Assembly: GCA_963662265.2 (NCBI GenBank)
Contig: CAXXHA010000010.1
Location: forward strand, 160,001 to 224,000
DNA: 64,000 nt
Reading direction: 5' to 3'
DNA from: Spirochaetia bacterium
GTDB taxonomy: Bacteria > Spirochaetota > Spirochaetia > CADAEX01
A program made the translations under genes and the position numbers. The stretch's first letter is position 1, and every line of letters begins with the position of its first letter. Below are positions 2,686 to 25,057 of this stretch, in pieces. The notes under the pieces were generated by a model that had not been told where the DNA came from, made no database searches, and saw nothing but the letters and a program-made list of their open reading frames with translations.

Positions 2686-2707
2686 TTATCACGCAATACA
2701 GACAATT
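2686..2707 (+). repeat. 22-bp direct repeat, copy 1 (downstream of integrase)
   Basis: TTATCACGCAATACAGACAATT vs TTATCATGCAATACAGACAATT at 3619-3640 (21/22). Confidence 0.85.
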
Positions 2708-2742
2708 TGGATTTTAAGACTTATCAGGAAATACACATAACT

Positions 2743-3543
2743 CTATAACGGGCTCTTCACCCTCTTTGATACAGGGTCTGCAAGGTTTATATAGATCATT
2801 GTTGTCTTGACCGATTTATGCCCCAGAAGATCCTTAACTGTCTTGATATCAATCCCGGCCTCTATCAGGTGCGTGGCGAAACAATGCCTGAGAGTATGGC
2901 AGGTTGCACTTTTCTGAATCAAACTCTTATTGAGAGCATTCTCGAATATTTTCTGGACCGTCCTTACAGAATATTTCTTCCCTGAAATTGTCCTGAAAAC
3001 ATAATCAGAAGCATTTCTCCCTGCAGTAAGCTGTCTTAAAGATTCTGAATACTTTTCCGAAAGAAGAGTAATCCTGTCCTTGTTCCCCTTGGAATCCCTT
3101 ATCTTAAGCGATAAGTCATTGAAATTAATATCCCTTATTTTTATTCTGCAGACCTCACTCACACGGAGACCGCTGCCGTAAAGAAGGGAGATAATAAGCT
3201 GATGCTTTTTGTTCTCAATATTTCCTAGAAGCTTAAGGACCTCCTCCCTTGAAAGAATATCGGGAAGCCTTTTCCTTGTTCTTACCCTGTCAAGCTTATA
3301 AGGACAGGGCTTGTCCAGTACAAGAGTATAAAACAGCTTTATCGCTGACCAGGCAAGCCTTCTCTGCTCACTCGAACTCTCTTCATTTTCAAGAAAAAGA
3401 GCAATCCTCCTTTCAGGATCAAAATCAGTTTTCCGGGAATATTCAAGAAAATGCTTCAGATGACCCGTATAAATCCTTACAGTATTTTTCGAATAATTCC
3501 GGTTCTTAAGCTCCCTTGTAAAATCTTCAAGATAATTTTTCAT
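2743..3543 (-). CDS. IntI-like tyrosine recombinase lacking the IntI-specific insertion (266 aa from the RBS-supported ATG)
   Basis: N-terminal RNYSKNTVRIY SAM-like domain; catalytic GLRVSE, SKGNKDR, HTLRH, LGH, TMIY; IntI-like C-terminal KSPL; only ~64 aa between catalytic K and HxxR. Confidence 0.92.
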   Translation of the reverse strand: MKNYLEDFTRELKNRNYSKNTVRIYTGHLKHFLEYSRKTDFDPERRIALFLENEESSSEQRRLAWSAIKLFYTLVLDKPCPYKLDRVRTRKRLPDILSREEVLKLLGNIENKKHQLIISLLYGSGLRVSEVCRIKIRDINFNDLSLKIRDSKGNKDRITLLSEKYSESLRQLTAGRNASDYVFRTISGKKYSVRTVQKIFENALNKSLIQKSATCHTLRHCFATHLIEAGIDIKTVKDLLGHKSVKTTMIYINLADPVSKRVKSPL

Positions 3544-3590
3544 GAAAAACGACCCCCTAGTATGTATAACAAGGGAAAAAGTAATTCTGC

Positions 3591-3619
3591 TTGAATTATA
3601 CACCCGCAGACTTTAAAAT
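3591..3619 (+). promoter_or_regulatory. Pc-like promoter facing the cassette array
   Basis: TTGAAT-17 bp-TAAAAT, ending ~25 bp before the first GTT; a divergent TATAAT (3595-3600, - strand) could serve the integrase. Confidence 0.55.
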
Positions 3620-3647
3620 TATCATGCAATACAGACAATTATAGTTA
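3619..3647 (+). other. Putative attI-like primary site: direct repeat copy 2, then ATA, then first GTTA (3644-3647)
   Basis: The first GTTA of the array is not preceded by a spacer hairpin; lies between the integrase start and cassette C0. Confidence 0.55.
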
Positions 3648-3866
3648 TCGTAAATGACAGGCCTTTGGAAATTTAGAAAGTCATTGATTCTTGACTTCTT
3701 TCTTCATGGCAAGGAACACAGCTGTATAAATTCAATTGTGAATTATGATGCTAATTATTGAAATATTAAGAATAGTTAAAATGCCGAGAATTAAATTTGA
3801 AGAAGCCATGAAGAAATTCTGACTTACATTGATTTGTAGATCTTGAAGCCTGTCACTCCCGATAAC
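3644..3866 (+). mobile_element. Cassette C0, no ORF of 60 aa or more
   Basis: Ends GTTATCGTAAATGACAGGC / GCCTGTCACTCCCGATAAC are inverted repeats (16/19); internal 12-bp IR at 3699-3710 / 3805-3816. Confidence 0.8.
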
Positions 3867-4026
3867 AGAGAATACCCGGTTCAGGCATAAGTAGTAAAAA
3901 GTATAGGGCTTAACTGCCGTTCACCCAAAATGTCGGAGCTTTTCTTGTTGCGTGTAAAATCTGGTAGGTATATGATTATTTTAATACGTGGAGAATCCGA
4001 CATCTTCGGATATTCTCAGAACGTTA
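3863..4026 (+). repeat. Spacer family A (attC-like), copy 1, 164 bp
   Basis: TAACAGAGAATACCCG...TGTCGGA...TCCGACA..CGGATATTCTCAGAACGTTA; homologous to 5035-5199 and 13663-13824. Confidence 0.9.
3948..3976 (+). promoter_or_regulatory. Putative sigma70 promoter inside spacer A copy 1
   Basis: TTGCGT-17-TATGAT; equivalent at 5121-5149 and 13746-13774. Confidence 0.55.
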
Positions 4027-4098
4027 AGTGCAATTCTTTGCTTAATATATTTTTTCCTCGCCATCCATGGCTCGGATTTAGAAAAGGAGTATTTCAAA

Positions 4099-4965
4099 AT
4101 GAAAAAAATTATTATTTATTGTTTAGCACTGTTTTTATTATTTTCATGTGCTAATAATGAATTTAATGTAGAACTTGGTATTGATGCAAACTTCATTGAG
4201 AATGATTTAAAAATTACAGGATCAACAAATCTTCCGGATGGTGCAATGATTTCATTAAATCTTAAACCACTATATGAAGAAGAAGTTTCTATTAAAGATG
4301 GAAAAATTGAACATACATTCTCTTTTAATGGAGATGCTATACCTGATGGAGATTATACACTAGAAGCAATATTTATTCCTACTCAAAACGAATCACCAAA
4401 ATTAAAAAATATGATTCTAATTGAAAATGAAAATGTATATGAAAAAGATGGAATAAAATATTATTATATCGGAAATAATTTTAATATAAACAAAGTAGTT
4501 AAAAATAAAGAGCTAAAAAATTTAATAAACAGAAAAGTTCCATATGAAAAATGGAATGATTGGGGAAATCCTGAAACTCTTGAACAAACTAACAATATTT
4601 TTTGGGCAGCATATCTCGAGAAAGCTGATATTTCTTTTATATCAAAAAAAGAGAATGATAAAATCATTTTTGCATGTAGAGGAAAAGAAAAACTAGAAAA
4701 ATATTTTACTGATCGTCAAAATAATATTGAAATTGGATTTTCTCTTTGGGATGGTTCGCATAAAAAACTTACAGAATTAATCAAACAAAGTATGAATGAC
4801 GCAAAAAGTTATGAACATGTTAAAACTGTTTACTGGGATAAAGGAGATCATTTAATAGTTAAAACAGATTTTAGGGGTGCAAATGTTTTTGGAGGTATCG
4901 TCTTAGATTCTGTTACTGCTAAGACATCTATTGATGGTGAGATCTTAGAAATAATTTCAGATTAA
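4099..4965 (+). CDS. Lipoprotein of unknown function (cassette C1, 4023-5038)
   Basis: AAGGAG RBS then MKKIIIYCLALFLLFSC signal and lipobox; the ORF-track start at 3988 lies inside the spacer. Confidence 0.8.
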   Translation: MKKIIIYCLALFLLFSCANNEFNVELGIDANFIENDLKITGSTNLPDGAMISLNLKPLYEEEVSIKDGKIEHTFSFNGDAIPDGDYTLEAIFIPTQNESPKLKNMILIENENVYEKDGIKYYYIGNNFNINKVVKNKELKNLINRKVPYEKWNDWGNPETLEQTNNIFWAAYLEKADISFISKKENDKIIFACRGKEKLEKYFTDRQNNIEIGFSLWDGSHKKLTELIKQSMNDAKSYEHVKTVYWDKGDHLIVKTDFRGANVFGGIVLDSVTAKTSIDGEILEIISD

Positions 4966-5034
4966 TTTTTTACTGCCAGAAAGTACATCCCTGTACTTTC
5001 TGGAATTTATTAAAATTCAGCAAAGAACAGCACT

Positions 5035-5199
5035 TAACAGAGAATACCACGGTTCAGGCTTAAGCAGTAGAAGCATGTAGCAAAACAGCCGTTCACCCAA
5101 AATGTCGGGACTTTTTATTGTTGCAGGTGGAATCTGTTGGGTATAAGATTAATTAAATATCTGGAGCATCCGACATCTTCGGGTATTCTCAGAACGTTA
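5035..5199 (+). repeat. Spacer family A, copy 2, 165 bp
   Basis: Same terminal IR and internal motifs as copy 1; TTGCAG-17-TAAGAT at 5121-5149. Confidence 0.9.
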
Positions 5200-5431
5200 T
5201 GTACAATGAGCCCGACAAGAGGAAGACGCCCGGACCTCCGGCCGACGGGCGAAGAGATAATATATATATGTTATATCGAAAGAAGGAGTAAAAATGAGAT
5301 TGAAGGCATTAATATTAGAGAACTTCCGAGGCTATTCTGGAGTAAATTTAATTAATTTTGAAAAAGACTGGAAATGGCAAGTCATTTTCCCCACATTTAG
5401 GAAATTAAAAATCCCCCACCTGCAGAAAAAA

Positions 5432-6172
5432 TTATACCCCCTTTTTCTCCTGAATTCTATATGAATCTCCCTCAAGGGAGAAAACATGCGCATGATGTAA
5501 AAGCCTATCAAGCATTGCTGTTGTCATGATTTCATCACCCATCATTTCAGACCACTGATCAAAACCTTTATTTGAAGTAATTATTACTGACGATCTTTCA
5601 TAGAGTTCGCTGATAAGATTAAAAAAAAGATTGGCCTCTTTTCTGTCGATAGGCGTATAGCCTATTTCATCAATAATTAGTAACGAAGATCTGAGAATCC
5701 TGTTTATTCTGAATGAACTTGATCTCATAGTTTCCATTGTTTTCAACAGTTTTATTAGTGAAGTTATCCTTTCAAAACAGACAGTGTATCCGGCTTCAAT
5801 TGCCTTGTACCCGAGAGCAATTGATAGATGTGTTTTCCCAAGGCCGGGAGGTCCAAAGAACATGATATTTTCAGATTTATCTATCCACCTGAAATCCTTG
5901 AGATTATTTAACTGTTCTTCAGTTATCCCTTTTATTCTTGAAAAATTGAATGTCTCAAGTTCCTTAATTACAGGAAAATGGGCACCTGTAAGATTTCTAT
6001 GAAGACGTCTTTCATTTCTGAAATGTACTTCTTCTGTAAGAAGGATGCTTAAAAAATCAAGATGAGATATTTTCTCCTTTGTTGCTTTTTCAAGTGCCTC
6101 ATCAAGATTAACAGATATTCCTTTAAGCTTTAGACTATCAAGTATTCCTGTACAGTAATCAAAACAGCTCAT
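5432..6172 (-). CDS. istB: IS21 helper ATPase
   Basis: GPPGLGKTHL Walker A, LLIIDEIGY, TSN, LDRLLHH, GDSYR. Confidence 0.95.
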   Translation of the reverse strand: MSCFDYCTGILDSLKLKGISVNLDEALEKATKEKISHLDFLSILLTEEVHFRNERRLHRNLTGAHFPVIKELETFNFSRIKGITEEQLNNLKDFRWIDKSENIMFFGPPGLGKTHLSIALGYKAIEAGYTVCFERITSLIKLLKTMETMRSSSFRINRILRSSLLIIDEIGYTPIDRKEANLFFNLISELYERSSVIITSNKGFDQWSEMMGDEIMTTAMLDRLLHHAHVFSLEGDSYRIQEKKGV

Positions 6173-7731
6173 AAAGCACCTCCTAAAAGACTTACAAGTG
6201 AGGTGTAGTAACTTAAATCCCTTTTCTTTACTTCTATGTTTTTATTCTCATGTTTTACAGCTTTTATTCCTGTAAGAAGCTGTGGCAGAATATCCGGATA
6301 ATTTTCAGTTTCACAGCTTCTTACATAAAGATAAGACTCTTCAAAATTCCTTGCAGATAGTGTTCCGTTTTCAATGCATAAATCTGCAGTTTTTGCTATT
6401 AACTTATCATCAGGATTTGAGTTTATGAAAGCATAAAGCTCGCGCTGCTGATCTCTGTAATACCTGCTGTATTTTTTGTAATTCTGATCAACATATTGTT
6501 TCCATGAGTTACTGCTAAATCTGTTCTTTAATTTTTTGATAACTTCATCGGGCTTGGAATCATAATTCCTGAAATGATTATGTTTGGTTATTTTTTTCCC
6601 CTTTATCGGTGAGATTTTGTGCCTGGCAATCTCTTCTCCATCTATTTTGTCATAGATAAAAAGGTCTGTATCTGTTTGGTAAATCCAGACAGTTTTTTTT
6701 CTGAACCTGTTAGGGACAGAGTAAAATGAAGATGAAACACTTATCAATGATTTACTATTTACTTCCCTTGATTCTTTATTTATGATGCTTTCCCTTCTGA
6801 AAATAGACGGCTTTAATTTTTTAAAATGTGGAATCTCTTTAAGCAAAGCTTCTTGAGGAATTATTCCAGTTGCCTGGCATATTTTACCGTTAGCTCTTCT
6901 TGAAAGCCAATTATTTAATGCCTCCTGTATTTGATCAAAGGATGTGAAATGTCTTGCTGAAAAGAAACTGCTTTTGATGAATTTCACAAAGTTTTCGACT
7001 TTACCTTTGCTCTCAGGGTCTGCTTTTCTGCAGACATACATCTTAAACCCCTGCTCATCCTTGAAGGCTTTAAATTCTTTTGTATACTTAATATCTCCGC
7101 TGTTTTCTTTAACAACCATGACTTTGTCCTGATCAATCACGATTTCTTCAGGTACCCCTCCTATTATTTCAAAGGTATCAAGTAAATGATTTATCACATC
7201 TATGGATTTAAACGGCCTCTTCTGTACTGCTGCATACTTGAATCTGCTTACAGATAGAATGACTCCAAAGATATATACTTTCTCACCGGTTTCTATTTCA
7301 GTTTCTCCGAAATCAAGCTGTAGTTGTTTTCCATGTGGAAGTTCTTCAACCGGTGTATAGATTCTCTTGTATTCGTAATTATCTACTTCTCCTGTTTTCT
7401 TTAAGAAAATGAGATAATTTCTCAAAGTCCTTTCAGTGCCGGGAAGTTCTCCATATTTTTCTTCAAGAACATCATAGATTGATGAAGTGTATATTTTATT
7501 GTTATTTAAATTAAAAATATTCAGTATTTCATCTTTGAAAGGAGCAAAAATCTTTTCCTTTTCTACACTGTTTATCTGGTATTCAAGATACTCTGCTTCC
7601 GACATTTCAAAGTATTTTCTAACTGTTTTTCTGTCGATTTTTAATTCTCTGGATATTTTCCTTTTTGAATATCCTCTATTCTTGAAAACTCTTATTTTTT
7701 GGTACATATTCATAGTAATCATTTGAGTCAT
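6169..7731 (-). CDS. istA: IS21 transposase
   Basis: N-terminal HTH (IDRKTVRKY), QLDFG, GGVPEEIVIDQ, SKGKVE. Confidence 0.95.
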   Translation of the reverse strand: MTQMITMNMYQKIRVFKNRGYSKRKISRELKIDRKTVRKYFEMSEAEYLEYQINSVEKEKIFAPFKDEILNIFNLNNNKIYTSSIYDVLEEKYGELPGTERTLRNYLIFLKKTGEVDNYEYKRIYTPVEELPHGKQLQLDFGETEIETGEKVYIFGVILSVSRFKYAAVQKRPFKSIDVINHLLDTFEIIGGVPEEIVIDQDKVMVVKENSGDIKYTKEFKAFKDEQGFKMYVCRKADPESKGKVENFVKFIKSSFFSARHFTSFDQIQEALNNWLSRRANGKICQATGIIPQEALLKEIPHFKKLKPSIFRRESIINKESREVNSKSLISVSSSFYSVPNRFRKKTVWIYQTDTDLFIYDKIDGEEIARHKISPIKGKKITKHNHFRNYDSKPDEVIKKLKNRFSSNSWKQYVDQNYKKYSRYYRDQQRELYAFINSNPDDKLIAKTADLCIENGTLSARNFEESYLYVRSCETENYPDILPQLLTGIKAVKHENKNIEVKKRDLSYYTSLVSLLGGAL

Positions 7732-9749
7732 TCCTGGTAGTTTTTGTCGTGATTACATACTAAGGTTTGACTCTTTTTTTTCCTATAGGGTGGGGAATTT
7801 TATTTTCCATCCTATGGGGATTTCATGTTACCATTTCCAAAGACCTAACATCTTTTATAGGAAAGAATGATAGTGGTAAGTCATCAATTCTTGAAGCTCT
7901 TGAGATATTTTTTAATAGTAAAGTTATTAAAATTGATGGTGATGATAAATTTGTACGTTCATTAGAAAATATTGTGAATATTGGTTGTGTTTTTACGGAT
8001 CTTCCAGAAAAAGTCATTATTGATGAAACTAATGAGACATCATTTATAGATGAATATCTTACAAATGAAAATGAGGATTTGGTTGTTTTAAAGAGATTTA
8101 AAATACAGAAAACTGCAAGTAAACCGGAAACATTTATAATAGCAAATCATCCTAGTAAAACTGGTTATGACGACTTACATAGTTTAAAAATCGGCGAATT
8201 AAAGAAGAGAGGAAAAGAATTAGGTATTAAAGATACCGTAGAAGATCAGAGAATTAGTGCTCATTGGAGAAAAGCGATTTGGTCTTCAACTGATAATTTG
8301 GAAATACAAAAATCTGAAATTGAAATTACACAATTAAGCACAGAATCAAAAAAATTATATACAAGAATAAGTGAAGCAATGCCAACATTTGCTCTTTTCC
8401 GATCAGATAGAGAAAGTAGTGACTCTGATCCCGAAGCGAAAGACCCTATGCAATTAGCAGTAAATGAAGCAAAAAAAACTTATGAAGCTCAAATTAATGA
8501 ATTACAAGAGAAAATAGAAAAAAGTGTTTTCGAGGTTGCAGAAAGAACGCTAGAAAAAATGAATGAAATGGATCCTTCTTTAGCTAATGAATTGAACCCA
8601 AGATTAAAAGAAACACCAAAATGGAGTTTTAGTTTTACAATTGATGGTGATGAAAATATTCCAATTAATAAGAGAGGTAGTGGGGTCAGGAGACTTGTTC
8701 TTTTAAATTTCTTTAGAGCAGAAGCTGAAAGAAAGAAAATTCAAAATCATTCTCCTGATGTAATATATGCAATTGAAGAACCTGAAACATCTCAGCATCC
8801 GAATTATCAGCAATTATTGATTGATTCATTGATAGCATTATCACAAAATGATAATTGTCAGGTTTTATTAACAACACATGTTCCAGCATTGGCAGAAAGA
8901 TTAGAAATTAACTCTATTAGATTTATTGAGAAAATCGGATTAGGTGAAATTAAAGTTCATATGCATAATGATTATGTTTTAGAATTAGCTACAGAAAGTT
9001 TAGGGATAATGCCTGAAAAAGAAATATCTTTAGCCAATAAAGTTATATTAGTTGAAGGTCATAGTGATATAACATTTTTGAATAAAATTAGTGAAGAATA
9101 TAAGAATGCGGGAGAAATAACGTCAACATTAAGTGATTCAAAAATATATCCAATACCTATTGGTGGATGCGGGAATCTTAAACATTGGATAACCAAACGC
9201 ATAATAGATAAAATGGGAATAGAATATTTTATTTTAATGGATTCAGATTTAGGAGATCCAGTAAATAATTCTAGAAACATTACTAAAATAAATGAAATTA
9301 ATACAAATGGTCAAATCGGATATTTAACAAATAAACGAGAACCTGAGAACTATATTGATCCAGATTTATTGAAAACAAAGTATGATAAAGATATTAGATA
9401 CACTAACACTTGTGATGCGAAAAAAATAATTGGAAAAGAATTAACAATTAGACCAAATGATGTTCTTGAGTTTATATGGCCACATATGGAATATCAGCAT
9501 ATGAAAAAAATGGCGAAATATGGTGATAAAGATGAATTCAAAGAGTGGATGGATGCGTTCTTAGAATAATGATAATATGAATATTCTAGCTAAGAAGATT
9601 ATAATGGTGAAGAATCCAAACCTCTGAAATAAAGACAAATAGAGAATGTAATTACTTTTTACAAATAGTATTGCTGACGATATTTTTAAGAATAGCTTAA
9701 ATATCTGGTAGAATACGTTCAATAACAATTAAATAAATGGTATAATTTT

Positions 9750-11546
9750 ATGATGGAAACGAGTCTTTCAGTTCTTATTGAAGATTTATCAGTCTCAGCA
9801 AAGAAATATGAAAATGAATATAACGATGATGAGATGCTTACATTTGCTATTTCATTTTGTCAGAGATTAATATCAACATATTGGCAGATTAATATCTCTG
9901 ATACAAAATATTCAATTACTCCGTATAATTCTGAGCTATATGGATATCTGAAAGGGCAACCAATAATTATTGCTGATCAAATCGCACAGTTATTATCTGC
10001 AATGCCAAATAAGGATGCTGGTTTCTTTATTGGAAATATTTATACATCATTACTTCCGAAGAATGTCAGGTCAAAAAACGGCGCTTATTACACACCTCCA
10101 ATACTCGTACAAAGATTATTAACATCTATTGATAACTATAGATTTGATTGGATTAATAGTAAAATATTGGATCCTTCATGTGGTGGAGCTGCATTTCTTA
10201 CAAGTATATCCAGATTTATTATTGAAAAATATAAACATGAATTATCAGCAGATGATTTATTTTCCTTTATTGAAAAAAACATACAAGGGTATGAAATTGA
10301 TCCTTTTGCAGCATGGATCTCACAAACATTGTTGGAATTTGAATTATATGATCTATATCTCAAAGTAAATAAAAGAATAAAAAAAATCATTTCTGTAACT
10401 AATTCCCTTGAGGAAAATTACGACAAGAATTTTGACCTTATCATAGGAAATCCCCCTTATGGAAAAGTAACAATTGAAAAAAACTTAAGAGAGAAATTCA
10501 GTAATAGCGTATATGGACATGCCAATCTTTATGGATTATTTACAGATTTAGCATTAAATCTTTTAAATGAAAATGGATATATAGCCTATGTTACTCCAAC
10601 TTCGTTTTTGGGTGGAAATTATTTTAAGAATTTAAGAAAACTTTTAGGAGAAAATTCTCCTTTAGTTTCTATTGATTTCATAAAAGATAGAAGTGGCGTT
10701 TTTAGTGATGTTCTTCAAGAAACAGCACTAGCAATATATAAAAAATCAAAATTTGTAAAAAAAGTTGAAATATCTGAATTATCAACTACAAAAAATCTTG
10801 ATTCCTTATCAATTATAAAAATTGGAAGTTTGCTAGTTAATCAAAATACAGAAAAACCCTGGCTTATTCCAAGAGAAAAAGATCAATTATCGTTATATAA
10901 GAATATTTCTTCCTTCGAGTATACTTTACGGGACTATGGATTTAAGGTCCGTACTGGACAACTTGTATGGAACAGACACAAGGAACAATTATCAAGTTCA
11001 AAAAGAAACTCTTATCCTTTAATATGGGCCGAATCCATATTAAGAAATGGAAATTTTGAATTTAAATATACAAAGAAGAATCATTTCCCATACTTTAAAT
11101 TGGAAAGAAAACAAAATTATTTACTCACAAATAAAGAATGTATTATATTACAGCGAACAACATCTAAAGAACAAAGTAGAAGATTAATATCTTCAATACT
11201 TCCAAATGAATTTATTAGTCAATATGGTGGTGTAGTTATTGAAAACCATATTAATATTATAGAACAGAATGAAGAAACAGTTTTAGATTTAGTTACACTT
11301 AATATCTTGTTAAATTCAATAGCAATAGATAGAATTTTTCGTTGTATTAATGGCAGTGTAGCCGTTTCTGCTTATGAGTTAAATTCAATACCATTTCCAT
11401 CCCCAGAAAAGATTTTGAATCTAAAAAAATTCTTAATTAAAAATGATAAACGAAGCTCAATAGAAGAATATATTCTAGATATTTATGGAGGCAATATTGA
11501 TGAGTCAACTTCCTACAGTTCAATCGATACAAGACAAACTGGATAA
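9750..11546 (+). CDS. N6-adenine DNA methyltransferase (Eco57I/BsuBI-PstI-like)
   Basis: GAYYTP, ILDPSCGGAAFL, IIGNPPY. Confidence 0.9.
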   Translation: MMETSLSVLIEDLSVSAKKYENEYNDDEMLTFAISFCQRLISTYWQINISDTKYSITPYNSELYGYLKGQPIIIADQIAQLLSAMPNKDAGFFIGNIYTSLLPKNVRSKNGAYYTPPILVQRLLTSIDNYRFDWINSKILDPSCGGAAFLTSISRFIIEKYKHELSADDLFSFIEKNIQGYEIDPFAAWISQTLLEFELYDLYLKVNKRIKKIISVTNSLEENYDKNFDLIIGNPPYGKVTIEKNLREKFSNSVYGHANLYGLFTDLALNLLNENGYIAYVTPTSFLGGNYFKNLRKLLGENSPLVSIDFIKDRSGVFSDVLQETALAIYKKSKFVKKVEISELSTTKNLDSLSIIKIGSLLVNQNTEKPWLIPREKDQLSLYKNISSFEYTLRDYGFKVRTGQLVWNRHKEQLSSSKRNSYPLIWAESILRNGNFEFKYTKKNHFPYFKLERKQNYLLTNKECIILQRTTSKEQSRRLISSILPNEFISQYGGVVIENHINIIEQNEETVLDLVTLNILLNSIAIDRIFRCINGSVAVSAYELNSIPFPSPEKILNLKKFLIKNDKRSSIEEYILDIYGGNIDESTSYSSIDTRQTG

Positions 11547-13514: not shown

Positions 13515-13519
13515 GATTA

Positions 13520-15997: not shown

Positions 15998-16345
15998 ATG
16001 TCAACTACACCGGATTTTATTGAATTTGTCTTTGATCAGATTGATAATAAATGGAATAAACGATATAGGAAAATGTTTGGAGAATATATGGTTTACGTAA
16101 ATGACAAACCGATATTGCTTGTATGTGATAATATAGTTTATGCAAAAAAATTGGATTGCATAAAGCCATTTATTAAGGAAAAGGAATGTGGATTTCCATA
16201 TAATGGAGCAAAAGAACATTATATAGTTGATGTTGAAGATGATGAACTTTTTAGTAAAATTATCGAGGAGCTTGAAAAAGTAATTAAAGTACCTGTGAAA
16301 AAGAATAAAAGACGAATAAGTAACGTACAGACTGAAAGATATTAG
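15998..16345 (+). CDS. TfoX N-terminal domain-like protein
   Basis: MSTTPDFIEFV...YRKMFGEYMVY...LVCDN; GAGGGG RBS. Confidence 0.75.
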   Translation: MSTTPDFIEFVFDQIDNKWNKRYRKMFGEYMVYVNDKPILLVCDNIVYAKKLDCIKPFIKEKECGFPYNGAKEHYIVDVEDDELFSKIIEELEKVIKVPVKKNKRRISNVQTERY

Positions 16346-16423
16346 TGAAAATGTGAAGCCAAAAATATCCATGTATTTGGCAGAGGATATAATCAATAAT
16401 TTCTAAAAACAAAAACTGGGTTA

Positions 16424-16499
16424 CAACAAGAAATATACGATTCTGCTTCACTCCAACCAAATACGGAGTTGCCACACTTCGCATATTCCTGAAACGTTA
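16424..16499 (+). repeat. Degenerate family B spacer
   Basis: CAACAAGAAATATACG...CGCATATTCCTGAAACGTTA. Confidence 0.75.
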
Positions 16500-16526
16500 C
16501 AGGCAACTACATTCTGAGGAGACTTA

Positions 16527-17078
16527 ATGATAAACAGTGAACGACTTACTTTGAGAAACATCGAAGAGAGAGATATTACTTTTCTTGAAGAAATCTTACT
16601 CGATAAGCGTTTAATGAAATTTATACCACTCCCAATTTCGAATCATGATCAGGTTGAATCATTTATGAAATCATTGATTAAAGCCCAATGTTTACAAAAG
16701 AGAAAACAGTATTTTTTAATAATTGAAGCGAATGATTCAAAGCAGCAAATTGGTACGATAACTGGAAAAATTATTAGCGAAGAAATACAAGATGGTATCG
16801 GTATTCTGGGATATACAATTTTGAAAGAATATTGGGGAAATGGATATGCTACTGAAGCAACAAATACTATTATTTCCTTTTTTCTGAATGAATTGAAACT
16901 TCATAGACTCGAAGCATCAAGTGTAGCTGACAACAAATCATCAGAGAATGTGTTAAAAAAAGTAGGAATGAAATATGAAGGGACTAAACGTAAGTCTCTG
17001 AATATTGATGGAATCTGGTATGATGAATTACAATACGGGATTCTCAGAAACGATATTTCTGCGAACTTTGAATTGTAG
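16527..17078 (+). CDS. RimJ/RimL-family GNAT (cassette 16496-17089)
   Basis: SERLTLR, LGY..LKEYWGNGYATEA, N..S..VLKKVGM. Confidence 0.88.
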   Translation: MINSERLTLRNIEERDITFLEEILLDKRLMKFIPLPISNHDQVESFMKSLIKAQCLQKRKQYFLIIEANDSKQQIGTITGKIISEEIQDGIGILGYTILKEYWGNGYATEATNTIISFFLNELKLHRLEASSVADNKSSENVLKKVGMKYEGTKRKSLNIDGIWYDELQYGILRNDISANFEL

Positions 17079-17085
17079 CTTCCTA

Positions 17086-17163
17086 TAACAGCGCATGTGC
17101 GGTGCTGCATTCGGCTTTACGCAAATTGGCCTTTGACCAACATCGCATATTCGCAATACGTTG
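17086..17163 (+). repeat. Family B spacer
   Basis: TAACAGCGCATGTGCG...TTGGCCTTTGACCAACATCGCATATTCGCAATACGTTG. Confidence 0.85.
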
Positions 17164-17289
17164 TACATCATATCAAAATATTATCGTCATTAGCGGCGAT
17201 TAAAGGCAAAAAAGATTTTAAAGAGAAAGGCGATGTTTTTGAAGTAAAAGACATTTCCTGGATAGAAAATATCAGAGGAAAAATATTAT

Positions 17290-17829
17290 ATGAAAAGATA
17301 TATTGCCTTGTTGCGGGGAATTAATATAAGTGGAAAAAACAAGATATCCATGTCTGAATTAAAGAATGGATTTACAGAACATGGTTTTACAGAGGTTGTG
17401 ACATATCTTAATAGTGGTAATGTGATCTTTTCATGTATTAATAATAATGAAGCTGTTCTTTCAAATGAAATAAAGTTAATGATAAAAGAAAGATTTGATT
17501 TAAACATACCGGTTTTTGTTGTCTTACAAGAAAAATTAGAAGAACTATTAAATCATGCTCCCGGTTGGTGGGGAAATGATAACAAAGAAATATATGATAA
17601 TCTCATTTTTATGATGCCTCCTTTATCTTATGAGGAGTTTTATGATGTAATCGGCAATCCTAAAGCGGAATATGAAAAAGTGCATAATTACAGCAATGTT
17701 ATTTTCTGGTCATTTATACGGAAAGATTATCAAAAGACAAATTGGTGGTCAGGGACTGCTGGCTCAAACATAAGTGATAAGATTACAATTCGAACAGCTA
17801 ATACAGTAAGAAAGATAGTGAGTATGTGA
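17290..17829 (+). CDS. DUF1697 family protein
   Basis: YIALLRGINISG.NKI.M.EL...V.TYLNSGNVIF. Confidence 0.85.
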   Translation: MKRYIALLRGINISGKNKISMSELKNGFTEHGFTEVVTYLNSGNVIFSCINNNEAVLSNEIKLMIKERFDLNIPVFVVLQEKLEELLNHAPGWWGNDNKEIYDNLIFMMPPLSYEEFYDVIGNPKAEYEKVHNYSNVIFWSFIRKDYQKTNWWSGTAGSNISDKITIRTANTVRKIVSM

Positions 17830-17879
17830 TATATAGTAGTGAGGTTAATTAAAATCTCAATATTACTTATGGAGAAAGA

Positions 17880-18074
17880 ATGAGAATTGAAAATGTCAGC
17901 AAAAAAGACTATTCACAGTTAATTGAAATATGGGAAACTTCTGTACGTTCAACTCATGATTTCCTGACTGAAAAGGATATTATATCGTTAAGATCTTTAA
18001 TAATTGATAAATATTTTCCTGCTGTTGACCAACTTCCCATATTCGTGAAACGTTATAAGCAATTAATAAATTGA
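17880..18074 (+). pseudogene. 3'-truncated GNAT (YjaB-like) fused to the right half of a spacer
   Basis: IWETSVRSTHDFL N-terminus runs into GTTGACCAACTTCCCATATTCGTGAAACGTTA. Confidence 0.75.
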
Positions 18075-18095
18075 TTAGTTTAAAGGAGTTCTAAT

Positions 18096-18590
18096 ATGAA
18101 AGCTGCATTAATGATAATTGATATGCAAAAAGAATATTTCACTGGTCTTGCAAAAAAATCAATGACCGAAGCATCCGAGTATATAAATGAAGTTTTAGGG
18201 TATTTCAGAGAACGAAAACTGCCTATTGTTTGGGTTCAGGATATTGATAAAAAATGTGGAGTTGTTCCAGATTCAGAAGGTTTTGAAATTATTGATTTAC
18301 TAGAGAAGCAGAATAATGAAATAAGTATTTTCAAAGAATATGGAAATAGTTTTAATAAAACAGAATGTGGAAATATCCTAAAGAAAGAAAATGTCGATGT
18401 AATTGTAATAACTGGATACTGTGCAGAATATTGTGTTTTATCTACATATCGAGGCGCTCAGGATTTGGATTTTACACCAGTCATACTGAAAAAAGGAATT
18501 GCGAGTGGTGATTATCAGAATCTACAATTTATTGAGAAAATCTGTGATACAATTCCCTATAATATAATCAGCAAGATGATTGGAAAATAA
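18096..18590 (+). CDS. Isochorismatase-family cysteine hydrolase
   Basis: ALMIIDMQ, K...NSF, G..AEYCV.ST. Confidence 0.88.
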   Translation: MKAALMIIDMQKEYFTGLAKKSMTEASEYINEVLGYFRERKLPIVWVQDIDKKCGVVPDSEGFEIIDLLEKQNNEISIFKEYGNSFNKTECGNILKKENVDVIVITGYCAEYCVLSTYRGAQDLDFTPVILKKGIASGDYQNLQFIEKICDTIPYNIISKMIGK

Positions 18591-18616
18591 TACTCCCAAG
18601 TACTACTGACTGTTCA

Positions 18617-18703
18617 TAACAGGGGCTATTTACTCCGCCAAGTCGGGCTTCGTGCTGCACCATTTTTGGCCTAAGCCAAACATCACATAACCCAAGAACG
18701 TTA
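18617..18703 (+). repeat. Degenerate spacer
   Basis: TAACAGGGGCTAT...ATAACCCAAGAACGTTA followed by TTGGC-AAT. Confidence 0.75.
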
Positions 18704-18741
18704 TTGGCAATATCCCTTAAGATCAACATGTGAGGAAGATA

Positions 18742-19647
18742 ATGAGAATCAAGCTGGAAAAGCATACGACAAGCATATTACAGGCACTCCTCGTGACTTT
18801 TCTCTGGTCTACATCTTTCATTATCATCAAAAAGGGATTGCTCTCAATACCACCTCTGACATTTGCTGGCCTAAGATACTTTTTTGCATCACTTTGCTTG
18901 TTGCCATTTTCATTTATGCCGCAACGTCAATCTGAAATCCGGAAATTGGGTAAAAATAAATGGGGTAAACTGATTATTTTAGGCATGGTATTCTATGTGT
19001 TTACCCAGGGGATACAATTCATAGGTCTATCACTTCTGCCTTCCACAACTGTCAGCTTAATGCTCAATTTTACTCCTGTAATAGTTATGATACTAAGTGT
19101 CGTATTCATTAATGAAAAACCGGTGAAAAGACAAGTCGCGGGAGTATTCATCTTTGTTGCAGGAGCTCTTGTTTATTTTCTACCTTTATCAAATCTCGGG
19201 GCGCAGTTAATAGGATTGATTGTTATGGCCTTTGGCATTATTTCAAATGCAATTTCATCGGTTTTAGGAAGAAATATAAATCGAGATAAAGAAATTACTC
19301 CGTTTACAATTACATTAATTTCGATGTCATTTGGTTCAATGCTTCTCCTGATTACCGGGCTTGTCATTGAAGGAATACCAAGTATACCACTCCGGTCATG
19401 GATATCTCTGATTTGGTTATCAGTTGTAAATACCGCATTTGCATTTACACTTTGGAACCGATCTCTTCGTCACCTTACAGCAATGAAATCAAGTATCATC
19501 AACGGAACAATGTTGATTCAAATCGCTATATTGGCCTGGATTTTTCTAGGAGAGGGCCTCTCCGGGACCAATATCGGCGGCATGATTATTGCATCAATCG
19601 GTGCAATATTAGTCCAGTTGCGGTATAAAGAGAAGGTAAGCAATTAG
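18742..19647 (+). CDS. DMT/EamA transporter
   Basis: About 10 TM segments, LWSTSF, duplicated EamA pattern. Confidence 0.88.
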   Translation: MRIKLEKHTTSILQALLVTFLWSTSFIIIKKGLLSIPPLTFAGLRYFFASLCLLPFSFMPQRQSEIRKLGKNKWGKLIILGMVFYVFTQGIQFIGLSLLPSTTVSLMLNFTPVIVMILSVVFINEKPVKRQVAGVFIFVAGALVYFLPLSNLGAQLIGLIVMAFGIISNAISSVLGRNINRDKEITPFTITLISMSFGSMLLLITGLVIEGIPSIPLRSWISLIWLSVVNTAFAFTLWNRSLRHLTAMKSSIINGTMLIQIAILAWIFLGEGLSGTNIGGMIIASIGAILVQLRYKEKVSN

Positions 19648-19668
19648 CGGAGACCGGGAGACTATCAA

Positions 19669-19745
19669 GAACAGTGAATATGTGGTTCAGCATTCAGCAT
19701 CTCCCAAAATGCCGTTGACCAACATCGCATATTTACAAAACATTA
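19669..19745 (+). repeat. Degenerate family B spacer (GAAC...ATTA)
   Basis: GAACAGTGAATATGTG...GTTGACCAACATCGCATATTTACAAAACATTA. Confidence 0.75.
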
Positions 19746-19786
19746 TAGTTAATTTTGAATTAAGATTTTAATCAAGGAGTTTTCAT

Positions 19787-20218
19787 TTGAATATTACTAA
19801 AATGACAATAGCTGACTATGACGAAGCATTTAAACTCTGGTCAAATACTGAAGGGATGGGACTACGCTCCCTTGATGACTCACAAAAGGGTATTGATTCT
19901 TTTTTACAGAGAAATCCCAACACAAATTTTGTTTGCAGAAATAACAGTGAATTGATTGGTGTCATTTTATCAGGGCATGATGGTCGAAGAGGTTATATTT
20001 ATCATGCTGCTGTACATCCAAATTACCGGAGAAAGGGAGTTGGAAGAAAACTTGTAAAAGAAGTTATTTCTTCGCTGGACAAAGAGGGAATAAAAAAAGT
20101 CGCATTAGTTGTTTTCTCAAGCAATCAGAAAGGCAATGACTTCTGGGAATCTTTAGGCTTTATAAATAGAAAAGACTTGAATTATAGAAATCTCGCTATT
20201 GATCCTACAAATATTTGA
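19787..20218 (+). CDS. GNAT acetyltransferase (YpeA-like)
   Basis: GHDGRRGYIYH.AV.P.YRRKGVG. Confidence 0.88.
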   Translation: MNITKMTIADYDEAFKLWSNTEGMGLRSLDDSQKGIDSFLQRNPNTNFVCRNNSELIGVILSGHDGRRGYIYHAAVHPNYRRKGVGRKLVKEVISSLDKEGIKKVALVVFSSNQKGNDFWESLGFINRKDLNYRNLAIDPTNI

Positions 20219-20246
20219 TAAGCAAACACTTAATTTAAACTTTCAA

Positions 20247-20330
20247 GAACAGACAATATATGATCCGCCCAGCTACGGGCTCGCCAAATCCATTACTTAG
20301 TGCTAGACTTCATATATTTCTTAAACGTTA
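20247..20330 (+). repeat. Degenerate spacer
   Basis: GAACAGACAATATATGA...TCATATATTTCTTAAACGTTA. Confidence 0.7.
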
Positions 20331-20361
20331 TATCTAATTATATTTTGTAAAGAGAACATAA

Positions 20362-20883
20362 ATGAAACATATAGAAATAAAAGAAATTACTGAAATAGAC
20401 ATCCCTGAAATTGTAGACATTTGGTATGAAGTTTCTCTTCAAGCTCATGGATTTATTTCCAGCGAATATTGGAGAGCGAACAAAGATCAAATGAGTAATA
20501 AATACATACCAATGTCTGAAACATTTCAAGCAACAGATGGTGAAAATATATTAGGATTTATCTCATTATTAGATGATTATCTTGCTGCAATTTTTGTAAA
20601 ATCTGAATTCCAGGGAAGAGGAATTGGATCTTTATTATTAAACCATGCAATGAGTCTTCGCAATAATCTGCAATTAAAAGTATTCTGCAAAAATGCAAAG
20701 AGTATAGAATACTATAAATCAAAAGGTTTTTCTGTAATTTCAGAATCAAAAGATAATGAGACAGGAGAAAATGAGCTTGTCATGAAGTGGCATAAAAAAA
20801 AACTAGACGTAACAAGAAATATGCACAGCCCTACAGGCTTGGCCTTCGCAAATGCAGCGTTGCTTCTCTTTGCATATTTCTGA
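20362..20883 (+). CDS. GNAT acetyltransferase (YiaC-like), C-terminus reads through the next spacer
   Basis: AHGFI...YW, FV..EFQGRGIG; the last ~25 aa are encoded by spacer 20810-20890. Confidence 0.82.
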   Translation: MKHIEIKEITEIDIPEIVDIWYEVSLQAHGFISSEYWRANKDQMSNKYIPMSETFQATDGENILGFISLLDDYLAAIFVKSEFQGRGIGSLLLNHAMSLRNNLQLKVFCKNAKSIEYYKSKGFSVISESKDNETGENELVMKWHKKKLDVTRNMHSPTGLAFANAALLLFAYF

Positions 20884-20890
20884 AACGTTT
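20810..20890 (+). repeat. Degenerate spacer
   Basis: TAACAAGAAATATGCA...TGCATATTTCTGAAACGTTT then GGCGC-AAT. Confidence 0.75.
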
Positions 20891-21014
20891 GGCGCAATTT
20901 GTCCCCCAAGAAAAACATTGCCCGGACATCCAGCCAACAGACTAAAATAACACTTCATGATGTGGTAATTAAATTAGCTGGTGAAAAAAACCATTTTTTA
21001 TGAGAAAATAGTTT

Positions 21015-21521: not shown

Positions 21522-21633
21522 GCAACTAGGGTGCTCGATAAACTTAATGTTTTTATAAAGAAGTTTGTTGATCCAGAGATTTAGAATCCAGACCGAACTC
21601 TGTTTAATATTCTGAATGTTGAACCAAAGCATA

Positions 21634-21742
21634 TAAGAGGGGCTATGTCGCATTGCTATAAGCTCACTGGCCTGAGGCATATGGCCTATGTCAAAATTTC
21701 TGCGCAGTAACTCCGGGAACTTAGCATATTCTTGAACCGTTA
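21634..21742 (+). repeat. Highly degenerate spacer
   Basis: TAAGAGGGGCTATG...GCATATTCTTGAACCGTTA. Confidence 0.6.
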
Positions 21743-21785
21743 AATACATTACAATTTGTTTAATAACACCTTAAAGAGGACAATA

Positions 21786-22463: not shown

Positions 22464-22820
22464 ATACAGCCAAAAGAATTAGTAAAATTATGGGTAGATG
22501 CTTTTAATGATGGAGATGCAACAAGAATATCCGATTTCTATGCAGAAAATGCTGTTAACCACCAGGTAGCTAATGAACCAGTTGAAGGAAAATCTGCAAT
22601 AACTGATATGTTTAAACAGGAATTTTCTGCTGCAAAAATGGTTTGTGTAGTTGAAAATATTTTTCAAGATGGAGATTGGGCAATTCTTGAATGGAAAGAT
22701 CCTTTAGGATTACGGGGCTGCGGCTTTTTTCATATCTTAAATGATAAAATAATTTTTCAGAGAGGTTATTGGGATAAACTCAGTTTTTTAAAAGCACATA
22801 ACTTGCCAATTCCAGAATAG
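22464..22820 (+). CDS. SnoaL/NTF2-like protein; start codon appears mutated to ATA (possible pseudogene)
   Basis: The open frame upstream of the 22608 ATG reads QPKELVKLWVDAFN.GD...FYAENAVNHQV; followed by ACT-N5-TAAC at 22824-22835. Confidence 0.7.
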   Translation: MQPKELVKLWVDAFNDGDATRISDFYAENAVNHQVANEPVEGKSAITDMFKQEFSAAKMVCVVENIFQDGDWAILEWKDPLGLRGCGFFHILNDKIIFQRGYWDKLSFLKAHNLPIPE

Positions 22821-23044
22821 AAAACTTCTCTTAACAGCAAATATGCACTTCATCATTCAGCTTCTCTTAAAAACAGCAATTTGCCGGCTTTGCAGTAAAT
22901 ATAGCATTCCAACTAAAACTTTATATAATAAAATTTAAAATAAGAAGGAAACACTGTGGCCTAGAGGAAATAAGAGAGATTTACAGGCAAAAGCTGTTTG
23001 CTCAAATGTTTTTTTACAAGTATTATTGAAAAAAGGAAAAAGTA

Positions 23045-23488
23045 ATGAGAATAGAAAAAATTAAAAAGAACAAGAAGCAGCACCTTGATTTATTGCTATT
23101 GGCAGATGAGCAAGAGGATATGATTGACAGATATCTGGAAAGTGGAGATATGTTTGCACTATTCGATCATGACTTGAAGACTGTTTGTGTTGTTGCCGCA
23201 ATAGACAAAGAAACATGCGAATTAAAAAACATAGCAACATATGAAAAATACCAGGGTAAAGGATATGCTAAAGCTCTAATTAAATTTGTCTCAGATTATT
23301 ACAAAAACGACTATGAAACAATGCTTGTCGGAACAGGAGAAACTCCCAAAATATTGTCATTTTATGAAAGTTGCGGATTTGAAAAATCTCATGTTATCAG
23401 GAATTTTTTTACAGATAATTATGACCATCTAATGTTTGAAGACGGAATACAGCTTATTGACATGGTTTATCTGAAGAAATTTTTATAA
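23045..23488 (+). CDS. GNAT acetyltransferase
   Basis: LLLLADE, ELKNIAT...QGKGY, FYE.CGF. Confidence 0.88.
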
Positions 23489-23560
23489 ATATCTGCGGCT
23501 AATAAAAATCTTTCCGCATCCTTTAATAGGAAGGTAAGAAATACACGTCAGGAGTAAATT

Positions 23561-24073
23561 ATGTATAATCATTCAATTCCGTATAAGAAAAAAGGATTAT
23601 ATATCCTGATTACATTGCCGCTTATTCTGGTTTATATATTAATAGGATATTATTTAAACAATATAGGTAATATTAATCTCATCATTTATATCACTTTATT
23701 TACTATAACAATTATTTTTCAGAGTTATAATTGTATATATTGGAAATGTCCACATGTTGGAACTCTTTGCCCAGGCGCCGGCGGTTTTTGTGTACTATCA
23801 AGTCCTATTGGAAAATTATTAATTAATATGAAAATAAAGAGTTCTGAGAAATTATATAAAATACTCTGCAGCATTGCTTTTACAGGTTTTTTGGGGATAA
23901 TTTTATATCCGGTCTATTTCATATATAAATTAAGTATTTTATATCTAGCTTTTTATTTTTTTATAATTTCAGCTTATTTCTTGTTTATGATGATATTGAT
24001 CTGTCCTGACTGCGGAGCTAAAAAAGCATGCCCGGGAGGACAATTTTCATTAAAAATAAAAAAACAATGTTGA
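23561..24073 (+). CDS. Membrane protein with Cys clusters, unknown function
   Basis: Four hydrophobic segments; C...CP....CP and CPDC....CP motifs. Confidence 0.7.
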   Translation: MYNHSIPYKKKGLYILITLPLILVYILIGYYLNNIGNINLIIYITLFTITIIFQSYNCIYWKCPHVGTLCPGAGGFCVLSSPIGKLLINMKIKSSEKLYKILCSIAFTGFLGIILYPVYFIYKLSILYLAFYFFIISAYFLFMMILICPDCGAKKACPGGQFSLKIKKQC

Positions 24074-24242
24074 AACAGTTTAATAAGGAAAGTTCAGATA
24101 AATATTTTACCGGAACAAAACTAATGGAGCCTGGATTATTGTGATAAGAAAGGAATTATAAAGCTAAGGCAGATATTCGGATGAACACAAGGTAAACAGG
24201 ATTCATACATCAGGACTCATAAAATGATAAAGGAAAATATTT

Positions 24243-24743
24243 GTGGTTGAAAAATTTGCAATACCAGGTGTAGGCGGAATAATAAGAAAATATAATAATA
24301 ATTCGCAGGAATATATTCTTGTTCAGGACAGAGTAAAACCGAATTATGAAAACATGAAAGGAATCATTGAAATCCCCGCAGGAAAAATAAGAGAATTTGA
24401 AAATATCTATTCTTGTTTAAGAAGAGAAATTTATGAAGAAACCGGCTTGAGTGTTGAAGAAATTGATGGTGAGGACTTATCAGAAATTATAAAAATCAAT
24501 AATTATGAAGTCCTGTCATATGAACCTTATTCCAGCAGTCAGAATATATCTGGAGATTATCCGATCTTAGTACAGGTATTTTTATGTACTGTTAATGACG
24601 GAAAAGACCCGATTAAAGAAAGTGATGAGTCGAAAAATATTCGATGGATAACGAAAGAAGAATTAAAGAGACTACTGCTTGAAGAGATAGATAGTTTCTT
24701 TCCAATGCATATATCTACTTTGAAAAAATATTGTGGAATATAA
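24243..24743 (+). CDS. NUDIX hydrolase
   Basis: PAGK...E.....LRREIYEETGL Nudix box. Confidence 0.88.
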   Translation: MVEKFAIPGVGGIIRKYNNNSQEYILVQDRVKPNYENMKGIIEIPAGKIREFENIYSCLRREIYEETGLSVEEIDGEDLSEIIKINNYEVLSYEPYSSSQNISGDYPILVQVFLCTVNDGKDPIKESDESKNIRWITKEELKRLLLEEIDSFFPMHISTLKKYCGI

Positions 24744-24796
24744 CAACAACAAAATAATTCCATGTTTTTTATTTAAAAAGGAGTGTTGGTTAATAA

Positions 24797-24934
24797 ATGC
24801 TTGAATGGAAAGATCCTTTAGGATTACGGGGCTGCGGCTTTTTCCATATCTTAAATGATAAAATAATTTTTCAGAGAGGTTATTGGGATAAGCTCAGTTT
24901 TTTAAAAGTACATAATTTGCCGATCCCAGAATAG
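24797..24934 (+). pseudogene. Duplicated 3' fragment of the SnoaL-like gene
   Basis: 24800-24934 matches 22686-22820 with about 6 mismatches. Confidence 0.85.
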
Positions 24935-25057
24935 TTTTTTTTCAACAAATATGCAGTTCAGCTTTTCGCTTCACCTGAACTGGATGTTGGTAAATAAGCA
25001 TTTATGAGAAACATTGGGTATAATAAAAAACTTTGACGGAGGATTTAGGAGGTAAGA

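Follow-up and report, generated by a model that had tools for sequence, protein, structure and literature searches.

A short tyrosine recombinase without the I2 insertion at the head of a putative integron-like cassette array in Spirochaetota

Integron recombination is considered to require the IntI-specific domain, which also serves to diagnose integrons. Could a cassette array nevertheless be served by a tyrosine recombinase without that domain? The question is raised by a stretch of 64,000 nucleotides from a Spirochaetia bacterium (GTDB lineage Spirochaetota; Spirochaetia; CADAEX01), taken from GenBank assembly GCA_963662265.2, contig CAXXHA010000010.1, positions 160,001 to 224,000. This whole stretch is called the window here, and positions are counted from its first letter. 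A short tyrosine recombinase gene is encoded on the minus strand at 2743–3543, divergently from an adjoining plus-strand array of gene units separated by hairpin-forming sites. An earlier reading made without database searches, referred to here as the sequence-only reading, proposed that these elements form a distinct gene-capture system. Our analysis indicates that the locus is probably a chromosomal integron-like cassette platform in Spirochaetota, run by an I2-less relative of IntI and of the archaeal recombinase XerA.

The recombinase is 266 aa long when read from its ATG, and an alternative GTG start at 3603 would make it 286 aa. It matches Pfam PF00589 at 4.9e-40 and has an N-terminal SAM-like domain. 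The top NCBIfam family was XerA_Arch, with 206.1 bits, under the cut-off of 220. The integron-integrase model TIGR02249 gave 204.9 bits (cut-off 265) in a match broken into two stretches, and a second integron-integrase model, NF011946, gave 139.7 bits (cut-off 435); the XerC and XerD models scored 154.9 bits (cut-off 335) and 149.7 bits (cut-off 330), respectively. Among solved structures, the best sequence match was P. abyssi XerA (4a8e), at 138 bits in a single stretch. VchIntIA (2a3v) was matched at 132.6 bits in two stretches: residues 182–195 of the recombinase face VchIntIA 188–246, chain residues 189–245 have no counterpart, and a C-terminal SPL is common to both proteins. When the proteins were aligned together, the segment corresponding to residues 150–222 of the window protein comprised 72 residues in it and in three related recombinases discussed below (L001, L003 and L007), 75–79 residues in E. 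coli XerC and XerD, and 114–120 residues in eight canonical IntI. Judging from these alignments and from the TIGR02249 score, the recombinase is without the roughly 42-residue IntI-specific I2 insertion, as the sequence-only reading had held for this divergent gene.

An AlphaFold model of the recombinase (predicted local distance difference test score, pLDDT, 84.3) had VchIntIA as its best structural match (E 4.5e-18) and XerA as the next. R127, K152, H216, R219, H242 and Y251 are among the columns invariant in 22 family members, and we take these residues to be candidates for the catalytic roles. Members of the family are mostly 265–266 aa long, and the best 120 clusters are 44–100% identical to the window protein, the named members among them being Spirochaeta isovalerica, Spirochaetota metagenome-assembled genomes and one labelled Actinobacteria. 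The possibility of a truncated or frameshifted intI was considered and rejected, as the gene is intact and the length of 265–266 aa is kept in most of the 120 listed relatives.

The array, at 3644–25024, has a G+C content of 32.1%, compared with 40.5% and 39.9% in its flanks. It comprises about 15 cassettes, given by 13 sites matched by a covariance model, one site split by an IS3-family insertion sequence (IS) and one degenerate site, in line with the 13 or more AT-rich units first counted. The sites are 86–177 nt long, lie between gene units and share one plan on the plus strand. On the 5' side there is a left core, usually TAAC, followed by one unpaired base and a stem arm of 11–12 nt that is often GNGAATATGCG. 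After a variable loop, the 3' side consists of the complementary arm, five unpaired bases (RRAAC), GTTA, five free bases and AAT. The spacer is asymmetric, with one base on the 5' arm opposite five on the 3' arm, and the 11-bp L stem is perfect and has no extrahelical bases. GTTA was found at 10 of 16 right ends and AA(T/C) at positions 10–12 in 12 of 16, with TAAC at 9 of 15 left ends; both the junction motif and the asymmetric bulge had already been described from the letters. The integron-type boxes are rare: right ends conform to GTTRRRY in just 2 of 16 cases and left ends to RYYYAAC in 1 of 15.

The pairing scheme was tested on eleven hand-picked aligned sites. Standard pairs occupied 85.6% of cells, compared with 76.9% in shuffles, and none of 500 shuffles reached this value. 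Nine of 17 stem pairs were altered on both sides, the covariation score was 0.356 against 0.03–0.16 for slid partners, and shifting the partner by 1–3 columns lowered pairing to 22–47%. A covariance model, R1, was built from the eleven aligned sites and run with filters off over all 64 kb. Its 13 matches at E <= 0.011 span 3859–25024 and are confined to the plus strand; 11 were the training rows and two were new. The sole further match at E < 0.1 was the reverse reading of a near-palindromic site, at 12673–12760. Against an expectation of 5.3, the window holds 20 copies of the 5'-arm motif, nine of which mark the beginning of array sites. An extension of the array past 25 kb was rejected: up to 64000 the covariance model gave no further match, and the 5'-arm motif is there no more frequent than expected by chance.

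Simpler searches were less discriminating. AACGTTR occurs 10 times in the whole window against 7.1 expected, which is not significant alone, and 8 of the 10 lie on the plus strand within the array. A simple arm-pairing scanner returned 23 matches against 11–25 in shuffles, which is too unspecific.

If G|TT is the point at which circular cassettes are cut out, the sequence following GTT where a cassette begins should pair with the sequence preceding AAC where it ends. We compared each cassette start with the reverse complement of its own end over 24 nt in 15 cassettes. The first five cassettes paired at 17, 21, 19, 20 and 21 of 24 and two further ones at 16 of 24, so that 7 of the 15 fall at 16–21, and the two flanks adjoining the same site in the array paired at a mean of 9.5 of 24. 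No hairpin precedes the first unit (3644–3866; 223 bp), and yet its start and end are complementary at 17 of 24 positions. This argues that 3644 is the attI junction, as first proposed, and favours a crossover in the right-hand core. We infer a crossover at G|TT, as in classical integrons. The earlier description of a 7-bp R box replaced by 16–24 bp is better recast: the R core shrinks to TAAC/GTTA (plus AAT), and pairing within a cassette's own ends extends it.

The candidate attI (3619–3655, plus strand) contains the first junction, G|TTA at 3644, and one copy of a 22-bp direct repeat. The two copies of this repeat, at 2686–2707 and 3619–3640, differ by one mismatch, are both on the plus strand and bracket the recombinase gene (2 matches in the window against 0.02 expected); by eye, the repeat reaches about 40 bp with an indel. 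The first copy sits just past the 3' end of the recombinase gene and has no GTTA arm, and between the end of the second and the attI crossover point there are 3 bp. The recombinase gene would be lost if the two copies recombined with each other. At L001, L003 and L007, a search around the recombinase genes found no such repeat.

The bottom strand was more stable in 16 of 21 sites, at a mean of -17.35 kcal/mol compared with -15.58 for the top strand. This difference of 1.8 kcal/mol is close to the bias of 2.12 kcal/mol published for 263 canonical attC sites (PMC5027507). Two claims about promoters did not hold up. The sequence-only reading had placed a cassette promoter (Pc) before the array, and a match does lie at 3591–3619 on the plus strand (TTGAAT-17-TAAAAT, 9/12), placed right for a Pc and pointing into the array, but promoter-like matches in the region occur at chance frequency (10 against 9.7 expected). 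It had also assigned promoters to one family of spacers; no consensus promoter match was found on the plus strand inside the long sites, termed family A.

Is the same arrangement found elsewhere? A profile of the 22 family members fetched 80 loci, to which the site model was applied at a threshold of E < 0.01. Sites were detected at three of them: three sites at L001 (Spirochaetes; recombinase 53% identical to the window protein), four at L003 (Spirochaetaceae; 40%) and three at L007 (a Peregrinibacteria genome labelled Peribacteria; 37%). All of these sites lie upstream of the recombinase gene and on the opposite strand, and they share the shape TAAC-N-stem...stem-RAAC-GTTA-N5-AAT, with stems that differ yet remain mutually complementary. 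Their cargo follows the same order of an open reading frame (ORF) and then a site, and includes ParE, MazE/PIN, a deaminase, a methyltransferase and small unknown ORFs; at L007, three small ORFs, each followed by a site, run right up to the recombinase gene. The expected linkage of homologues to such arrays was thus seen at these three loci and did not extend to the other 76 loci fetched, where the site model had 0 matches.

These data bear on whether the hairpins could be intergenic repeats, such as terminators or repetitive extragenic palindromic-like elements, without a recombination role, the recombinase being irrelevant to them. The position of the sites at gene 3' ends and their stable stems fit such repeats, and some cassettes also have ordinary terminator-like stems (e.g. 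4976–5003). Terminators, however, leave the complementarity between the start and the end of gene units unexplained, and repeats of this kind explain neither the conservation of the AAC/GTT frame and the bulge across phyla nor the confinement of the sites to one array beside a recombinase. Rfam yielded no family match in the window, a result that says little because Rfam has no general attC model. We consider this explanation highly improbable.

How do the sites compare with canonical attC? Beside canonical IntI in the same data set, a pattern scan for RYYYAAC...GTTRRRY with boxes complementary at 6 of 7 positions found 12 sites at L042, 11 at L032, 5 at L074 and 3 at L019. Those at L042, L032 and L074 were folded and have an R box of 7 bp, unpaired stretches of about five bases on both arms and single-base bulges on the R''–L'' arm at positions 17 and 23, a shape described likewise for canonical attC in PMC5027507. 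The same strict scan of the window gave just two chance pairs; the window sites are therefore not of the RYYYAAC...GTTRRRY form. At L032, the eleven canonical 60-nt attC sites (11862–20765) lie downstream, not upstream, of the canonical intI (10001–10912), which is possibly the inverted-integrase layout known in the literature. At L077, which has a Xanthomonas intI, a canonical array was sought via direct repeats and none was found.

The locus has several features in common with sedentary chromosomal integrons. Both have a divergent recombinase, an adjoining insertion point, a one-directional array of small genes, most of them without promoters, and imperfect hairpins framed by AAC...GTT, with a G|TT crossover inferred and a bottom strand that folds better, and both carry GNATs, toxin–antitoxin pairs, defence genes and IS insertions. 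Unlike in integrons, the recombinase has no IntI insertion and falls outside the IntI clade, and the R boxes depart from RYYYAAC/GTTRRRY, the right-hand arm being conserved to position 12 (AAT) and the pairing of a cassette's own ends spanning up to about 20 bp. The spacer has 1 versus 5 nt, as opposed to about 5 versus 5 in canonical sites, and extrahelical bases are lacking. The extra bases of the window sites are on the L'–R' arm, not the R''–L'' arm, and adjoin the inferred cleavage point, a contrast in arms that depends on taking the L042 cassettes as minus strand, as the ORF positions suggest but do not prove. The enzyme feature that reads extrahelical bases and those bases themselves are absent together. 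The system therefore departs from integrons in the features that define them in both enzyme and site, and agrees in having an adjoining same-direction array with an insertion site at its head. Its mode of action is most probably that of an integron.

The sites could instead be a cluster of attC sites lacking an integron integrase (CALIN), built by a canonical IntI that is encoded elsewhere or lost, with the short recombinase as an unrelated Xer-type neighbour. Cury et al. (PMC4889954) concluded as much for recombinases without intI_Cterm near attC sites, the GNAT, toxin–antitoxin and defence cargo is typical of ordinary chromosomal integrons, and AAC/GTT cores are common to the window sites and attC. 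A chance neighbour, however, does not account for four independent loci with the same divergent abutting layout and recombinases just 37–53% identical, or for a first junction 100 bp from the start codon. The window sites also lack the extrahelical bases and the symmetric spacer of canonical sites, their ends seldom conform to the GTTRRRY and RYYYAAC boxes (2 of 16 and 1 of 15), and a scan of 75 window ORFs revealed no other tyrosine recombinase. We therefore regard a CALIN as unlikely.

The phylogeny of the recombinases was inferred from 72 rows and 266 columns, with the insertion columns left out. L007, L005, L003 and the window family formed a clade with support of 97/67. The canonical IntI clade of 35 rows had support of 100/100 and a stem of 0.71, with the window protein outside, and the IntI clade recurs in a quick tree of 102 rows. 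A third clade (95/94) contains IS91-linked and Bacteroidota forms. The branching order among the three clades is ambiguous, and all three stand apart from a Pacearchaeota protein and from E. coli XerC and XerD. It is quite possible, if short of probable, that the window family represents an ancient integron lineage of its own, with a recombinase that never gained I2, and so a living relative of the step from Xer to IntI.

The members of the third clade, IS91-linked short XerA-like recombinases and 578-aa Bacteroidota fusions, are 37–40% identical to the window protein and are likewise without the insertion. They differ from the window enzyme in having no hairpin arrays, and the nearest plasmid relatives adjoin IS91-type transposases. 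On a Clostridium estertheticum plasmid (L083), a recombinase about 38% identical directly abuts an IS91-family transposase. On an Acinetobacter indicus plasmid (L084), one of about 38% identity is next to tet(X3), with ISVsa3 (IS91-like) about 2.7 kb downstream. Several such plasmid recombinases carry the label 'site-specific tyrosine recombinase/integron integrase' from the Prokaryotic Genome Annotation Pipeline (PGAP). In Bacteroidota (L006, L009, L010, L012–L015, L020 and L035), relatives of 35–41% identity form the C-terminus of ORFs of 544–593 aa, which carry an N-terminal extension of about 300 residues.

Acinetobacter plasmids carry dif modules, in which genes are bounded by Xer-type sites of alternating orientation and are moved by the host XerC/D acting on duplex sites. 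Unlike the window array, these modules are not known to have a dedicated recombinase at their head, a covarying hairpin or a conserved bulge. Archaeal XerA (P. abyssi 4a8e; 5hxy) resembles the window enzyme in length class, domain make-up and top NCBIfam family. It serves, however, to resolve chromosome dimers at a single duplex dif with two 11-bp arms around 6 bp (PMC5357621), whereas the window enzyme stands at the head of an array of hairpin sites. The CTX phage, whose type of integration by XerC/D is that of IMEX elements, offers another comparison: its folded strand of about 150 nt, with two inverted half-sites, imitates an Xer core and is used by XerC, which is without I2; the hairpin is joined to duplex DNA by one strand exchange and replication completes the process (PMC5357621). 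The phage borrows the host Xer proteins at the chromosomal dif, whereas the window has a dedicated recombinase with a cassette array.

In another alternative, the sites act as duplexes like those of plasmid dif modules, the 5' half being an arm–6 bp–arm core that undergoes two-strand exchange and the inverted 3' half a second site with a different spacing. The enzyme does resemble XerA, and exactly 6 nt separate the end of TAA from the conserved ATATG part of the stem on the 5' arm; in Xer sites, 6–11 bp lie between 11-bp arms (PMC5357621). IntI itself can also recombine duplex sites, retaining duplex activity, and its second cleavage at attC is blocked by the interplay of I2 and the site (PMC4792948). 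The stems, however, vary between sites and remain complementary within them (9 of 17 pairs altered on both sides), also across genomes, and this points to intrastrand pairing. Moreover, duplex exchange needs no complementarity of a cassette's own ends beyond the arms, and the sites show a bias towards bottom-strand stability. A duplex mechanism thus seems unlikely, and we place it slightly behind a CALIN.

For the integron-like platform, the following scheme is consistent with the data. A cassette would be excised as a circle through recombination of two sites at G|TT. Closure of the circle would complete the site, giving a long R stem of about 12–20 bp made of TAAC/GTTA and both cassette ends, then a central region of 6 nt versus 10 nt that leaves a 4-nt bulge of the conserved RRAAC, then the 11-bp L stem and the variable loop. 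The bottom strand could fold to a hairpin mimicking an arm–spacer–arm core site of Xer type, its R arm consisting of the TAAC/GTTA core and the conserved AAT, to which the two ends of the cassette add further length; we presume that the right-hand arm resembles a half-site of the XerD type. A monomer bound to the R stem would cleave after TAA and swap a single strand with the attI duplex at 3644; the junction would then be resolved by replication, as in integrons and in XerC-driven integration of the CTX phage. The choice of strand would come from the central bulge and the stability of the bottom strand and not from an I2 helix reading extrahelical bases. By analogy, such action of an I2-less enzyme on bulged hairpins is mechanistically plausible, given that XerC joins folded hairpins and that IntI keeps duplex activity.

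Several observations weigh against this interpretation. The own-end pairing that the sequence-only reading had given to cassettes over 16–24 bp falls to 6–12 of 24 in the other eight, so that it stands for seven and is not universal. The modelled stems have nearly equal numbers of wobble pairs on the two strands (15 for the top, 16 for the bottom), a measure that favours neither. Only three comparable loci have usable upstream DNA, the genes at L004 and L005 being at a contig edge, and sites were looked for at L002 without any being found. The Shimodaira–Hasegawa-like approximate likelihood ratio test (SH-aLRT) value of 67 for the clade of the window family is moderate. A canonical intI may be present elsewhere in these genomes, and excision, insertion and reshuffling of cassettes are predictions from sequence. 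The weak or decayed sites and the two IS elements imply that the system may be inactive now. In addition, Cury et al. (PMC4889954) describe 50 proteins with PF00589 that lack intI_Cterm and are encoded near attC sites. Four of them lie between IntI and Xer with fewer than three attC, and the authors judged these not to be IntI. Of the gene-capture system first proposed, the idea of an integron-like platform differing in integrase and sites was retained, related loci agreeing with it, and the promoters and general end pairing were dropped.

The sites fall into a long and a short family and follow each other on the plus strand as follows. Site A1 (3859–4034; 72.2 bits), of the long family and 176 nt in length, terminates an ORF-less first cassette. 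The next long site, A2 (5031–5207; 73.7 bits), ends a cassette at 4023–5038 that has an ORF of unknown family and ends pairing at 21 of 24. B1 (12677–12764), of the short family and 88 nt long, is the best model match at 87.9 bits and folds at -20.8 kcal/mol on the bottom strand and -17.6 on the top strand. It is followed by the third long site, A3 (13659–13832; 77.9 bits), and the site split by the IS3-family element (14577–15843; 5' half 14577–14605, 3' half 15812–15843). The long-family sites A1, A2 and A3 have a common long loop, 71–83% identical over 65–114 nt. Then come B2 (16420–16507; 70.8 bits), B3 (17082–17171; 74.7 bits) and X1 (17916–18063), a weak non-training match of 25.0 bits (E 0.0052) with a left core TAAT. 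B4 (18613–18711; 57.0 bits), B5 (19665–19753; 70.8 bits), B6 (20243–20338; 62.4 bits), B7 (20806–20898; 75.3 bits) and B8 (21630–21750; 43.6 bits) precede the degenerate site Y1 (22828–22924), which has an exact 5'-arm motif at 22832 and a decayed 3' arm and is not matched by R1. The last site, X2 (24939–25024), is a weak match as well (24.6 bits, E 0.0063) and marks the array end. A stretch of 139 nt occurs in two copies, 95% identical, at 22682–22820 and 24796–24934, each preceding a different site. Identity falls to about 76% within the sites, and the stretch could be a duplicated cassette tail.

Array genes are mostly small and on the plus strand. They encode five GNAT acetyltransferases, an isochorismatase, DUF1697, EamA, flavodoxin and NUDIX proteins and a reverse-oriented RelE/HTH pair, along with ORFs without family assignment. 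None of the five acetyltransferases reached the cut-off of any resistance model in a scan against the aminoglycoside-resistance families of NCBIfam. The array has two IS elements, of the IS21 and IS3 families. The former (istA/istB, 5432–7731, minus strand) is inserted in a plus-strand cassette of 7.5 kb (about 5196–12684) whose ends pair at 19 of 24. This cassette also encodes an OLD/AriA/GajA-like ATPase-TOPRIM protein (7767–9569) and a type II methylase (9750–11546) that pairs with a restriction enzyme (11485–12582), constituting anti-phage defence cargo within the array. The next cassette holds a RelE-like toxin and an HTH/MqsA-like antitoxin in reverse orientation (12835–13514, minus strand), with ends pairing at 20 of 24. 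The two IS3-family ORFs (14651–14938 and 14986–15795, with HTH_Tnp_1 and rve) were inserted on the loop side of a site.

Outside the array, the genes to the left of the recombinase are ordinary, encoding a radical SAM protein, a phosphoribosyltransferase and a cupin. Accessory genes, small and on the plus strand, remain numerous at 25058–60000, including GNATs, methyltransferases and a nitroreductase, with zero detectable sites; these may be cassettes that decayed long ago or simply accessory DNA. One gene beyond the array (25899–26807) encodes an AraC/GyrI-like protein with an 'integron-associated' Cass2 domain. The cumulative GC skew of the 64-kb window had no turning point at the locus.

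Would such systems have been noticed before? The surveys of Nemergut 2008 (PMC2426708) and Cury 2016 (PMC4889954) and the archaeal study of Ghaly 2022 (10.1101/2022.02.06.479319), as far as their accessible text describes the procedure, select integrases by the additional domain. Considering that the published surveys found select on this domain, a branch without it would have gone uncounted. Smyshlyaev et al. (PMC8138268) described the insertion as 'not fully conserved' in their integron-like subgroup, and the accessible portion of that paper makes no link to arrays. In the literature searched, which excluded subscription journals, we met no account of an insertion-less recombinase at the head of cassette arrays. 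The 21 non-IntI recombinases in the supplementary tree of Cury 2016 may include relatives of the window enzyme.

If our interpretation is true, the branch would be present at least in Spirochaetota and Peregrinibacteria, and the range of cassette capture would widen to lineages now scored as without complete integrons. Censuses of cassettes would then undercount such arrays, including their defence cargo of OLD-type nuclease and restriction–modification genes. The system would also offer a natural setting in which to study how Xer-type duplex recombination gave rise to the recombination of single-strand hairpins, and a second structural solution to strand choice. Should the recombinase never have acquired I2, hairpin cassette capture would predate, or have arisen independently of, the recognition of extrahelical bases by I2, and the choice of strand would depend on a conserved central bulge of 4 nt that adjoins the cleavage point.

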